17,299 nucleotides of DNA, taken from assembly GCA_963977445.1 (NCBI GenBank), contig CAXBPH010000144.1:1-17299 (forward strand), read 5' to 3'. The DNA comes from an uncultured bacterium. Lineage in GTDB: Bacteria; Hydrogenedentota; Hydrogenedentia; Hydrogenedentales; JAEUWI01. Positions 12,001 through 15,000 of this stretch are shown piece by piece. Within the stretch, counting starts at the first letter, position 1. The number at the start of each line of letters is the position of its first letter. Position numbers: made by a program.

Positions 12001-15000
12001 GATTGCGCGCTACCGGTTTGGAGATCGAGCCCGAACGTATCTATACGTCGGCCATGGCAACGGCCCAATTCCTGAACCTGCAAAAAGCGGAGGGGACGGC
12101 CTATGTCGTCGGTGAAAGCGGTCTTACCCATGCCATACACGATGCGGGGTATGTTATCACCGACAGAAATCCGGACTATGTGATCCTGGGCGAAACCCAC
12201 GCCTACAGTATCGACCAAATAACCGTTGCCATTCGCCTGGTCGCGGCAGGCGCCCATTTTATCGCGACGAATCCCGACAAATCAGGTCCCTCAGAATTCG
12301 GGATTGTCCCAGCATGTGGAGCCATGGCGGCCCTCATCTCACAGGCCTCTGGTCGTCACCCCTTGTTCATCGGAAAACCCAATCCCCTGATGATGCGTCT
12401 GGCCCTCAATCACCTCGGTGTTCACTCCGAAAACACCATCATGATCGGCGACAATATGGAGACCGACATCATCGCCGGCGTGCAATCGGGCCTGGGTACG
12501 ATTCTCGTGTTAAGCGGCATCACAGACCGGGAAAAACTGCGAGAATATCCCTATCAGCCCACCCGTATAATCGATTCGGTGGCCGATCTTAACCCGTGAA
12601 CCCGTCCGGCGCTCGAGCAGTTGGCAGTCTGAGGCATGGTGCCTATACTCCCAAAGATAGATAGTGGATATGTCTGGACGGTCTCTGCGACTTCGTCGGG
12701 CGGTCCGTGTCGACTATGATCTGGACTACTGGATTTGGACGCCCATCGACGGCATCGTTCCCGGAGCGACGGCAACGGAATTGGCAAAGAATGAAGCCTT
12801 GTTTCAACAGCTTCCACGGCTAGATGCCATATTTGTTCCAGGCGGCGACCCGGGAAACAACGAGCCCGAAGATGTGATGGACTATCTCGCCCAATTGAGC
12901 ACGCTACTTCGCACCTATTTCCGCGATGCGGAAATGTGGGTATCGAATCAGGGCTTCGAACACGAACAGAACGACACGTTTTTTGACTATCTGGATAATG
13001 AGGCACCCACCTGGCTCACCGGCGTAGTCTTCGGCCCCTGGACGAAGCTCTCCATTCAGGAAGAGCGTCAATGGACGCCCAGTCAGTATCCCATTCGCCG
13101 CTACCCCGATATTACCCACAATCTCCGCAGCCAATTCCCCCAAGAGAATTTCGATCGGCCCTTTGCCCACCTTCTGGGTCGCGAAGCTATTGATCCCCGA
13201 CCGGTCGCCAGTGTGACCATTCACGACCTCCACGCACCCAGCACCATTGGCTATCTCGCCTATTCTGACGGCATTCACGACGATGTGAATAAAAACATCT
13301 GGAGCATGCGTTCCTGGGCCAGTGACATGACGGTCGATACGATGCTCCAGGAATACAGCCGATTTTTCTTTGGCCCGGAAGTGGCCACCGATCCGAAAGA
13401 TGGCATTCTGGCGCTGGAAGACAACTGGATGCACCCGGCGCTCACCACCACGGGCGTCGACGACACCTTTGCCATGTGGCAGCTACTGGAGTCCGAACCA
13501 ACGGATCTGTCGGACAATTGGCGGTGAAAATTGAATCTGGTTCACGCCTACTACGATGCCTATGTGCGCCAGAAGACCATCGACGAAGCGGAATACGAGC
13601 ATGAAGCCTACGCCCAGTTGGTCGACGCGTCGAAAATCAGTTTGACGTGGTGGCCGGTATGGGAACCGAAGGCGCTAAGCGGGCCCATCTGGCGTCACCG
13701 GGCCAGGAATATTTCCGGCATAACCTGGACTACGACCGGGAGGACAAAGGCGGTGGTCGACTTTCCTGGCAGGACCAGGCCTATACCTTATTTAACGAGC
13801 CCCTTTATATGGCATACGAGGGACTCGATCCGGTGGCGGGTTACGAATTGCAGGGTACCTACGCGGGGCGTTTCAACCACACCATGACTTGTACTGCCGA
13901 CGGGACCTATCAGATTCATGGCGAAGTGGGCACCCAGATATATCCACCACGGACCTTTGACATTCCTCAGGGGGCAACTGCCGATGGTGCTCTTGAACTT
14001 CAGTGGGATTTGGTAACGGGGCGGGGCTGTCAGCTTGCCGAAGTCTGGCTCAAAGTACGCGATACGGATGGCGACGGCGTAAGTGATGAAAACGATAGCG
14101 ACGACGATAACGATGGAATTCTGGACGAGAATGACACGTATCCCCAGGATGCCGATAACGATGGCGTGACTAATTTTGATGATGACGACAACGATGGCGA
14201 CGGTATTTTTGATTTAGCGGAACTGGATGGTGGATCCGATCCGCTCGATCCCAATGATCCCGTGGCAGGTGGCGAAGGCGAAGGCGAAGGTGAAGGTGAA
14301 GGTGAAGGTGAAGGTGAAGGTGAAGGTGAAGGTGAAGGTGAAGGCGAAGGTGAAGGCGAAGGTAGTTCCGATGGGTCCGGTTGTACGCCTTCGTTAAAGT
14401 CATTGGGCGCGGACGCAGATAGGGTATTGGCGGACTTGTTCTTGTTGGGTATGTCACTGGTCGTTTTGCTGAGTTCTACACGGCTGCCGCGAAGGCCCTA
14501 GGAGTCAGACTCCTGGCATAGCGCTACCTGGTAGCAAGTGCGGGCAGGTCCTCCATGGGACCATCGAGGCGTACAGCGTCGCGTTGGGCCGTCGGTGAGC
14601 GCGGGGATCTCCGTGCGTAGCGCGTTCAGGTCTGCGGGGCAGGCCCTGAACCTGCGCGCTCGGCTGAGGTTATAAATTTGAGCCTCTGTTGGCCCCCCAT
14701 CCCACCCGAATGCCCTGAGTATCATGTAGCTTTCCGCAGATAAAAGTTGCGGATTTTGTCGGGTTATGCTACATAGAACGTTGTACACCAAATTGCAACG
14801 GCCCTTCTGCGTGGCAGACCTGTCCCTCCGGACCGCGCGCCAGGCGGAATCATTTGCATATTGAGCCATGCCATTTCAGTGGCCTTTCGTCGTGGTAAAT
14901 CGTGGAATCCGGAGATAATCCTACGGATAAGTAGGTATCTTGCCGTCTAGCGTACCATATGGTATTCAATTGGCCGGTTGTCAGGCCTCGCGTCGCACAA

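Follow-up and report, generated by a model that had tools for sequence, protein, structure and literature searches.

The window analysed here is a 17,299-nt stretch of contig CAXBPH010000144.1 from the genome of an uncultured member of the Hydrogenedentales (G000). Two of its genes, encoding P0002 and P0001, end in the same C-terminal module of about 42 residues, termed the tail in the following, as the genome-wide survey's note had reported for both. The features of the locus are:

4924..11565, + strand: P0002 gene, encoding a predicted secreted surface protein of 2213 aa with the tail (translation, Pfam, NCBIfam)
4924..4989, + strand: signal-peptide-like N-terminal start of P0002 (MKNLLILALIIGGVSFCESAHA; translation judged by eye)
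11083..11220, + strand: (Gly-Glu)23 linker of P0002
11272..11391, + strand: pair of EF-hand calcium loops of P0002, between its two Gly-Glu linkers (EF-hand_5)
11413..11442, + strand: (Gly-Glu)5 linker of P0002, immediately 5' of the tail
11440..11562, + strand: tail of P0002 (profile match, E 3.7e-15)
11446-11451 and 11497-11517, + strand: Gly-Cys and GDLFSLV of the P0002 tail, followed by the helix and RRFGGR
12703..13641, + strand: frame-1 remnant of the gene that also gave P0001 (tblastn)
13659..14501, + strand: P0001 open reading frame, 280 aa, without signal peptide and in a frame that differs from 12703-13641
14061..14222, + strand: four DxDxDG calcium loops of P0001, of the TSP3 type and without an EF-hand pair (TSP3_bac)
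14271..14363, + strand: (Gly-Glu)15 linker of P0001, encoded by (GAAGGY)n
14373..14498, + strand: tail of P0001 (profile match, E 2.5e-14)
14379-14384 and 14430-14450, + strand: Gly-Cys and ADLFLLG of the P0001 tail, followed by the helix and RLPRRP; stop codon at 14499-14501

Matches of P0002 to Pfam and NCBIfam comprise Beta_helix in five stretches, TSP3_bac in six stretches and Big_12, together with a weak PKD match and choice-of-anchor Q (NF041518) in three stretches. EF-hand_5 is found in the last 104 residues with an E-value of 5.8e-9, and the C-terminal end reads ...(GE)5-SGC-SVSSKSVEKGVRDHF-GDLFSLVMALIVMSG-IRRFGGR. The second gene appears to be broken. Its frame-1 remnant aligns with residues 304-616 of a 1208-aa tail-bearing orthologue from G067 (66% identity, E 7e-135, tblastn), and the alignment runs across an in-frame stop at 13525-13527; orthologues of this gene (12703-14501) are 1208-1247 aa long. 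Since P0001 lacks a signal peptide and its frame is not that of the remnant, its open reading frame is read as the 3' piece of a gene, which is either truncated and frameshifted or else an assembly error. The calcium loops of P0001 match TSP3_bac under the cut-off (E 0.0071), and the protein ends in ...(GE)15-SSDGSGC-TPSLKSLGADADRVL-ADLFLLGMSLVVLLSS-TRLPRRP.

The tail ends 22-23 open frames of G000, both window genes included. A six-frame survey with an iterated HMM (stop-to-stop frames of at least 40 aa, E<1e-3) yielded 22 frames, and a separate profile search gave 23 matches; the 29 proteins previously counted at this threshold were not reached. In all 22 frames, 0-5 residues separate the end of the match from the stop, and in a library of 1.84 billion proteins each of the 59 tail matches ends within 10 residues of the C terminus. 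From N to C terminus, the tail consists of an invariant Cys, usually as Gly-Cys, a polar spacer of 8-20 residues, a small residue followed by Asp, a helix starting with (L/F)(F/L)LxG and a basic end. In a set of 63 tails, 8-20 residues (median 15) separate the last Cys from the acidic residue. Behind the latter comes an uncharged run of 12-20 residues (median 15), and the end is net positive in 98%. The Cys is present in 51/51 tails from 11 families, 27 of 63 tails contain 2-4 Cys, and the motif takes the form GCxC or GCGCxC in the sister families f2 and f3. In an alignment of 65 tails, position -1 is G/A/S in 63 and position 0 is D in 60, followed by L at +3 (56 tails), G at +5 (55), A/S/T at +7 (61) and L/M at +11 (62). 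This conserved spacing marks one face of the helix, in the order small residue, Asp, L/F, F/L, L, x, G, x, A, L, x, x, L.

The C-terminal position, the uncharged run and the positive end are those of the generic class of tripartite C-terminal sorting signals in Haft's sense. As in that class, a single genome bears the tail on numerous secreted proteins that have nothing else in common (22-23 carriers in G000; up to 31 per genome overall). All G067 carrier frames whose 5' end is contained in the DNA examined start with a signal-peptide-like segment, judged by eye, and 5 of the 8 G000 tail frames located inside contigs begin with such a segment. The passenger regions are unrelated to each other, combining for example a beta-helix with choice-of-anchor Q, PKD domains, or BACON and Ig-like domains with an InlB B-repeat. 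Carriers resemble adhesins and polysaccharide enzymes, reach about 4800 residues and are currently annotated as 'hypothetical protein'.

The DNA of the Gly-Glu linkers affects how these genes are recovered. The six commonest 16-mers of G000 are the phases of (GAAGGT)n, all six of them, and five or more Gly-Glu repeats are encoded at 33 of 928 contig ends, consistent with the earlier description of this repeat as the commonest 16-mer and a frequent contig terminus. Many tail frames are indeed fragments at contig ends, although the count is 14 of 22 rather than the 13 given before. The (GAAGGT)n linkers located 5' of the tail thus break assemblies, so that tail genes are systematically truncated in metagenome bins.

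Within the order, the G000 profile detects the tail in 45 of 133 genomes and a broadened profile in 50. Match counts across the nine members of the genus are 13-31 with the former and 9-27 with the latter. These values agree with the 48 of 131 genomes and 15-34 copies per genus member reported previously, as does the family pattern with 21 of 23 genomes in one family (here f3) and two in another (here f13, 2/54). A search at the phylum level added two further genomes, neither of which has the tail, and a homologue search admitting longer proteins gave three matches among 8000 scored candidates, which carries no information on other phyla. In the complete genome G067, eight tail genes are grouped in one 54-kb cluster that contains an Acyl_transf_3 gene and no protease gene. 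Around 11 low-copy tail genes, no gene family is common to three or more loci within 10 kb on either side. A T2SS-E ATPase gene lies directly upstream of a tail gene in G074 and G075 only, both from one genus, and a secretin gene shares a contig with a tail gene, about 14 kb apart, only in G013 among five genomes checked. Secretin genes occur in 5/5 genomes with 5-7 copies each, which indicates an outer membrane and type II-like export routes.

Comparison of the 22 G000 tails with NCBIfam and Pfam at E<=10 found no family matched by more than two tails (best E 0.02), in line with the earlier statement that no model covers the module. The MYXO-CTERM model (TIGR03901) matched none of these 22. 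Among 51 tails from 11 families, TIGR03901.2 was weakly matched by two (best E 0.0029), leaving 49 without a match, and JDVT-CTERM was weakly matched by one (E 0.038). PF07589 matched one of the 22 G000 tails at E 0.053.

MYXO-CTERM, the substrate signal of the myxosortases MrtX/MrtC/MrtP in Myxococcota, resembles the tail in its Cys motif, membrane helix and basic end; in either case a genome carries the signal on dozens of secreted proteins that are not related to each other, and the signal is restricted to a lineage. Haft (10.1101/2023.06.07.544157) describes a GCGC motif for MYXO-CTERM, so that GC and GCGC-type motifs with an invariant and often a second Cys appear in both, and a further study presents Cys-dependent cleavage of MYXO-CTERM by MrtX (PMC11980579). 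The tail differs in its spacer of 8-20 residues between Cys and helix, a greater and less uniform distance than the Cys signals described so far show, and in the near-invariant small-residue-Asp that opens the helix (Asp in 60/65), whereas Haft describes the MYXO-CTERM helix region as free of charged residues. Moreover, no myxosortase-type CPBP among the groups tested tracks the tail. JDVT-CTERM (MrtJ; NF033191 / NF033192) likewise has an invariant Cys followed by a nearly invariant helix-linked Asp motif (DP in JDVT), as described by Haft. It occurs about once per genome beside its protease, in contrast to up to 31 tails per genome with no adjoining protease.

PEP-CTERM, the exosortase signal, shares with the tail an acidic signature motif that opens the helix, a basic end and many carriers per genome, and exosortase-family genes are present in G000. 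The tail, in contrast, lacks Pro-Glu-Pro, has an additional invariant Cys and does not belong to PEP-CTERM as defined by TIGR02595 / PF07589; all 19 TIGR02595 matches of G000 lie elsewhere and none at a tail locus. GlyGly-CTERM (rhombosortase) has similar small residues before the helix and a similar basic end, and its delivery to the surface via the type II secretion system is known according to Haft (10.1101/2023.06.07.544157). The tail helix, however, does not start with Gly-Gly-Ser, and the top-scoring rhomboid of G000 reaches 40.7 bits where the rhombosortase cut-off is 84; this rhomboid is near-universal in the order. Among tripartite C-terminal sorting signals, we read the tail as a further variant of the Cys type, new and specific to this lineage, which no NCBIfam or Pfam sorting-signal model recognises.

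The CPBP/Rce1-like protein g03330 (C142:6190-7098) had been put forward as the protease that cuts the tail. This assignment is highly improbable. The protein does match PF02517 (28.4 bits, cut-off 22.4) and co-occurs with the tail across the order at an odds ratio of about 4: with the broadened-profile tail set, 34 of the 133 genomes have both, 16 the tail only, 29 the enzyme only and 54 neither, the corresponding earlier figures being 29, 18, 25 and 58. The EE, motif-2 His and H...N positions (motifs EExxxR, FxxxH and HxxxN) are presumably the catalytic residues of Rce1. Aligned to MmRce1 (PDB 4cad) and an intact paralogue, however, g03330 reads SE in place of EE, F at the motif-2 His and G...Q instead of H...N, so that three of four catalytic residues are missing, and these losses are common to 11/11 orthologues examined from three families. 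Judged by its sequence, g03330 keeps the CPBP fold family, as its PF02517 match indicates, with the active site lost, and it is almost certainly not a working protease. Of the 50 tail-bearing genomes, moreover, 16 have no orthologue, among them every genome of genera g9, g11 and g15, and near-full-length orthologues occur in the tail-free close relatives G058, G069, G070, G005 and G006, contrary to the earlier claim of none in five signal-free genomes. With its catalytic residues lost and a distribution that does not separate tail-bearing from tail-free relatives, g03330 was discarded as the tail protease.

The other chosen candidates were five further CPBP groups, a pair of exosortase-like genes, a rhomboid and the copy number of Lgt, and none of them tracks the tail over the 50 tail-bearing genomes; the co-occurring cognate enzyme that accompanies the generic tripartite class was not found among them. 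Fast-evolving, lineage-specific small CPBPs might cut the tail, with C86 (C86:15438-16097) acting in the genus and its sister genus and others elsewhere, which we regard as improbable. C86 retains all CPBP motifs (EEALFRG, FGLLHA, AHGVYD), among named models it comes closest to MrtS and MrtJ, in both cases under the cut-off, and in family f1 it is found in 10/10 tail-rich genomes and 0/5 others, one of these five (G071) having a single weak tail match. Yet orthologues are also present in G034, G035 and G037, which are tail-free (best E 0.04 in a relaxed tail search), so that order-wide C86 occurs in 10 tail-bearing and 3 tail-free genomes and is missing from 40 tail-bearing ones. Among the 11 genomes with clustered paralogues, another small CPBP group is limited to tail-bearing ones, and the sole tail gene of G116 has a CPBP gene at a distance of 3.3 kb; the latter type, however, is found in 1 tail-bearing and 7 tail-free genomes. 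Similarly, the f3-type small CPBP (P0062) occurs in 15 tail-bearing and 6 tail-free genomes. In one genus with three genomes, all with 8-9 tails, two lack it. Genomes without it include G017, G018 and 5/5 g15 genomes (5-14 tails each). P0062 and the G116 CPBP were rejected as the tail protease, being patchy or mainly found in tail-free genomes. Assuming one enzyme per lineage also makes the small-CPBP idea hard to falsify by presence and absence alone.

Alternatively, an exosortase-family enzyme could cut at the small-residue-Asp motif, which would then take the role of PEP, the candidate being the short-form C48 (C48:25743-26690). The motif is placed at the helix start exactly as PEP is in PEP-CTERM, G000 has three exosortase-family genes and PEP-CTERM as the sole recognised substrate class, and C48 has Cys-, Arg- and His-containing motifs typical of exosortases (by eye) and occurs in 47 of 50 tail-bearing genomes. 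It is, however, also present in 61 of 83 tail-free genomes and was not found in G061 (95% complete; 19-20 tails), and an exosortase model leaves the invariant Cys unexplained. The other orphan exosortase-like gene, C62, clearly does not track the tail. Cutting by an exosortase-family enzyme is quite improbable.

As for the remaining candidates, C62 was rejected with 9 tail-bearing and 12 tail-free genomes (21/133), the C48 exosortase-like gene (108/133) and the C45 rhomboid (121/133) are too universal to inform, and a second Lgt paralogue was dismissed as partner, two or more Lgt matches being common with or without the tail.

The position of the module, its tripartite build, the signal peptides of the carriers, their unrelated passengers and the lack of a matching model argue for a sorting-signal-like reading, and on these grounds the earlier description of an unrecognised Cys-containing C-terminal module holds. 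We consider it somewhat probable that the tail is a lineage-specific member of the tripartite Cys-containing class and signals the sorting or anchoring of proteins from their C terminus. Permanent anchoring in the membrane by the C-terminal helix appears rather unlikely by comparison: here the helix would stay in place, its conserved face serving oligomerisation or docking and the Cys forming a disulphide or binding metal, which would fit the lack of a co-varying processing enzyme among the candidates tested and the Cys-helix distance, which varies between 8 and 20 residues instead of being fixed. However, a plain anchor could do without the invariant Cys and the small-residue-Asp motif, yet both are kept across 11 families on unrelated proteins. 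In addition, the carriers are very large, resemble adhesins or enzymes and stand on long acidic stalks; given the outer membrane indicated by the secretins, an inner-membrane anchor would trap them in the periplasm.

For the tail as a sorting signal, we infer recognition, modification, cleavage and surface display along the following route. Sec would export the carrier via its N-terminal signal peptide, and the C-terminal helix would keep it attached to the inner membrane, its basic end facing the cytoplasm. A partner protein within the membrane may then recognise the conserved face of the helix, while the Cys motif, 8-20 residues outside the membrane, would be modified, most likely by lipidation. 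Upon removal of the helix, the mature protein could leave the inner membrane and reach the cell surface on its (Gly-Glu)n stalk. A bolder and unlikely version is that Hydrogenedentota sort much of their surface proteome by an enzyme outside the sortase, exosortase/archaeosortase, rhombosortase and CPBP myxosortase classes, with an undescribed membrane protein, possibly coupled to secretins, that reads the helix face.

Several points speak against the sorting-signal reading: none of the candidate enzymes tested tracks the tail, the surroundings of the 11 low-copy tail genes have no gene family in common at three or more loci, and the Cys-helix spacer departs from that of the described Cys signals. 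Moreover, in a module spread by domain shuffling, the motif could be preserved by common descent alone.

C-terminal sorting signals determine the set of proteins shown on a bacterial surface, and to our knowledge every such signal described so far has pointed the way to an enzyme of its own, be it sortase, exosortase, rhombosortase or myxosortase. As every obvious enzyme class fails to track the tail, its cognate enzyme becomes a testable question. Hydrogenedentota are a globally distributed, uncultured phylum, and the tail marks large, predicted surface proteins of its members. A model of the tail would enable annotators to flag the surface proteome of Hydrogenedentota.

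Two genes of the window, P0001 and P0002, end in the same C-terminal tail of ~42 residues, composed of a Cys, a spacer, a helix opened by Asp and a basic end. They are found in the following context:

13659-14501, + strand: P0001, an ORF with a translation of 280 residues
4924-11565, + strand: P0002, a gene with a translation of 2213 residues
1800-4226, - strand: DEAD/DEAH helicase of 808 aa with a C-terminal MrfA Zn-binding domain
78-1745, - strand: RNase_H_2 / PolB-exonuclease-like protein of 555 aa with TPR

In the translation of P0001, four DxDxDG calcium loops are followed by a (Gly-Glu)15 linker and the tail, with the C-terminal end SSDGSGC-TPSLKSLGADADRVL-ADLFLLGMSLVVLLSS-TRLPRRP. 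P0002 has a signal-peptide-like start, a series of domains, (GE)23, an EF-hand pair, (GE)5 and the tail, and ends in SGC-SVSSKSVEKGVRDHF-GDLFSLVMALIVMSG-IRRFGGR; its domains are Beta_helix in five stretches, TSP3 repeats and three 'choice-of-anchor Q' stretches (NCBIfam/Pfam). The helicase and RNase_H_2-like genes (78-4226, -), which are adjacent to each other, resemble the MrfA-MrfB repair pair.

A signal peptide is absent from P0001. Just upstream, a frame-1 stretch (12703-13641) shares 66% identity (E 7e-135) with its orthologue in the complete genome G067, a protein of 1208 aa of which residues 304-616 are aligned; the aligned stretch contains an in-frame stop at 13525-13527, and the tail ORF of P0001 lies in a different frame. 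This G067 orthologue (locus L101) has both the tail and a signal peptide, and orthologous open frames of 1208 and 1247 aa are present in G061 and G067. Because of the missing signal peptide, the in-frame stop, the change of frame and the longer orthologue, 12703-14501 is a gene with a truncated 5' end, an internal stop and a frameshift, or else an assembly error in this bin of 464 contigs. The tail of P0001 itself is intact. The broken gene (12664-13641) belongs to a paralogous family that is also seen in G067 and G061; across five genomes of the genus, a single genome has up to 13 matches, mostly in frames of 730-1250 aa. The scanned part matched no Pfam family, and within this family the tail is confirmed only on the closest G067 orthologue.

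The tail module is real and not a product of chance. A six-frame survey of the genome of the window (frames of ≥40 aa between stops; regex seeds followed by an iterated HMM; E<1e-3) yielded 22 tail frames, with all 22 matches ending 0-5 residues from the stop, and a profile search of the genome yielded 23; the 29 tail proteins of the genome-wide survey's note were not reproduced. Of the 22 frames, 14 are cut off by a contig end. (GE)4 or more is found ≤110 residues from the end in 14/22, and two or more calcium loops lie upstream of the tail in 8/22. Each of the six most frequent 16-mers in the assembly is a phase of (GAAGGT)n, and (GE)5 or more is encoded at 33 of its 928 contig ends.

Two profiles were used across the order Hydrogenedentales: A1, built from the 22 tails, matches 45 of 133 genomes (E≤1e-3), and A2, a broadened alignment of 51 tails from 11 families, matches 50 of 133 (E≤1e-4). 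Within the genus, each of the nine genomes has 13-31 matches with A1 and 9-27 with A2, and the sister genus (G059) has 19-23. At the family level, the tail is found in 21/23 genomes of f3 (up to 26 matches), 4/6 of f2 and 2/54 of f13. It is absent from the close relatives G058, G068, G069 and G070 (f1), G005 and G006 (f2), and G022 and G023 (f3), which are 84-97% complete except for G068, and from two further genomes of the phylum beyond the order. Among 1.84 billion representative proteins, A1 has 59 matches (E≤1e-3), all ending ≤10 residues from the C terminus. For the 10 of these that were looked up, the sole organism name is Candidatus Hydrogenedentes, and no source names a function beyond 'hypothetical protein'.

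Across 63 tails, a spacer of 8-20 residues (median 15) separates the last Cys from the acidic residue, and the uncharged run behind the acidic residue measures 12-20 (median 15). In 98% the end carries a net positive charge, and 27/63 contain 2-4 Cys. The sister families f2 and f3 have GCxCxKS or GCGCxC as Cys motif, and the single-copy tails of f7, f8, f10, f11 and f13 retain the Cys and GDLLLLG.

Conserved positions in 65 aligned tails, relative to Asp (position 0)
-2: L/F/I, 52
-1: G/A/S, 63
0: D, 60
+1: L/F, 53
+2: F/L, 60
+3: L, 56
+5: G, 55
+7: A/S/T, 61
+8: L, 44
+11: L/M, 62

Positions 0, 3-4, 7-8 and 11 form one helix face. A single conserved face is what would be expected if the helix touched another protein within the membrane.

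The passengers of the tail are mutually unrelated and include beta-helix proteins with choice-of-anchor Q, PKD proteins, BACON proteins with Ig-like domains, an InlB B-repeat, and the family of the broken window gene (~800-1200 aa). By eye, a signal-peptide-like start is present on each carrier frame of G067 whose 5' end lies within the DNA examined. The window's genome has eight tail frames that are not cut off by a contig end; five of them have such a start, and the exceptions are the broken window gene and two frames of 81 and 457 aa. Secretin genes (PF00263) number 5-7 per genome in all five genomes searched (G013, G016, G018, G021, G067), from which we infer that these organisms possess an outer membrane as well as type II-like export routes. 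For type II / type IV-pilus-like outer-membrane channels, this is an unusually high count. In G074 and G075, which belong to one genus (L142:5355-7145, L146:5491-7095), a T2SS-E-type ATPase gene sits immediately upstream of the only tail-bearing gene, whose product is a BACON/Ig-like protein of 921-931 aa. In G067, eight tail genes lie in a 54-kb cluster, and among them is a gene for an Acyl_transf_3 membrane acyltransferase (L093:17212-18417, +). The tail-gene cluster also encodes a 1267-aa leucine-rich-repeat protein (L094:16154-19954, -) that has a GE linker and EF-hand but no Cys/helix tail at the end of its frame, perhaps as a truncated carrier or a released form.

The CPBP/Rce1-like protein g03330 had been proposed as the tail protease and is rejected, since its active site and distribution both speak against that role. 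An alignment with MmRce1 (4cad) and the intact paralogue C152 shows, at the catalytic residues of MmRce1, SE in place of EE, F in place of the motif-2 His and G...Q in place of H...N. The same losses recur in 11/11 orthologues (f1, f2, f3), and three of four catalytic residues are missing in 12/12 members of the family (C142:6190-7095; orthologues at L032-L037, L055, L057, L058, L082, L090, L091). g03330 is thus a conserved protein of CPBP fold that lacks an active site. The family occurs in 63/133 genomes: 34 have both protein and tail, 16 the tail only, 29 the protein only and 54 neither (A2). It is found in tail-free close relatives and is missing from all genomes of g9, g11 and g15.

A chosen set of other candidates was scored, each against 50 tail-bearing and 83 tail-free genomes.

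Enzyme candidates (tail-bearing genomes; tail-free genomes)
C86 small CPBP: 10; 3
f3-type small CPBP: 15; 6
G116 CPBP: 1; 7
C62 exosortase-like: 9; 12
C48 exosortase-like: 47; 61
C45 rhomboid: 44; 77

Within f1, C86 is present in 10/10 tail-rich genomes and 0/5 others; it is missing from all further genomes among the 50, and the three tail-free genomes that have it gave nothing better than E 0.04 in a relaxed tail search (E≤1). One genus has three genomes with 8-9 tails each, of which two lack the f3-type CPBP. When paralogues were clustered in 11 genomes, the other CPBP groups turned up in tail-free genomes too, and the tail-gene neighbourhoods examined contained nothing recurrent. Lgt (PF01790) is found in 129/133 genomes. 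Most of the order shows at least two Lgt matches per genome, some genomes 5-8 (G054, G056, G079, G087); such multiple copies occur with or without the tail, and the second Lgt of the window's genome is split across two contig ends (C219, C419). This genome also has two orphan exosortase-family genes besides an XrtA-like one, both below every exosortase subfamily cut-off:

C62:14999-16504: 502 aa, distantly XrtT/XrtQ-like, with an extra ~200-aa C-terminal domain; in 21/133 genomes
C48:25743-26690: short-form XrtH/XrtX-like core with a ~200-aa N-terminal extension; in 108/133 genomes

The tail is not among the catalogued signals. No NCBIfam (release 20.0) or Pfam family was matched by more than 2/22 tails at E≤10 (best E 0.02). 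With the 51 tails of A2, the MYXO-CTERM model matches two (best E 0.0029), VPDSG-CTERM three (best E 0.034) and JDVT-CTERM one (E 0.038); the 19 PEP-CTERM matches (TIGR02595) of the window's genome include none at tail loci. A full-text literature search found no paper tying Hydrogenedentota to a C-terminal sorting signal, and the Haft preprint (10.1101/2023.06.07.544157) does not mention the phylum.

Unlike the described members of the Cys-type tripartite class defined by Haft, the tail has a long and variable spacer, its helix is opened by Asp, and no CPBP among the candidates tested tracks it. It may instead serve as a permanent anchor, a reading that we consider rather unlikely. For MYXO-CTERM, cleavage was shown to be MrtX-dependent and Cys-dependent (PMC11980579). 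Based on its build, position, carriers and GC/GCGC motif, the tail is placed in the Cys-type tripartite class, and we lean towards a sorting signal that is recognised and processed.
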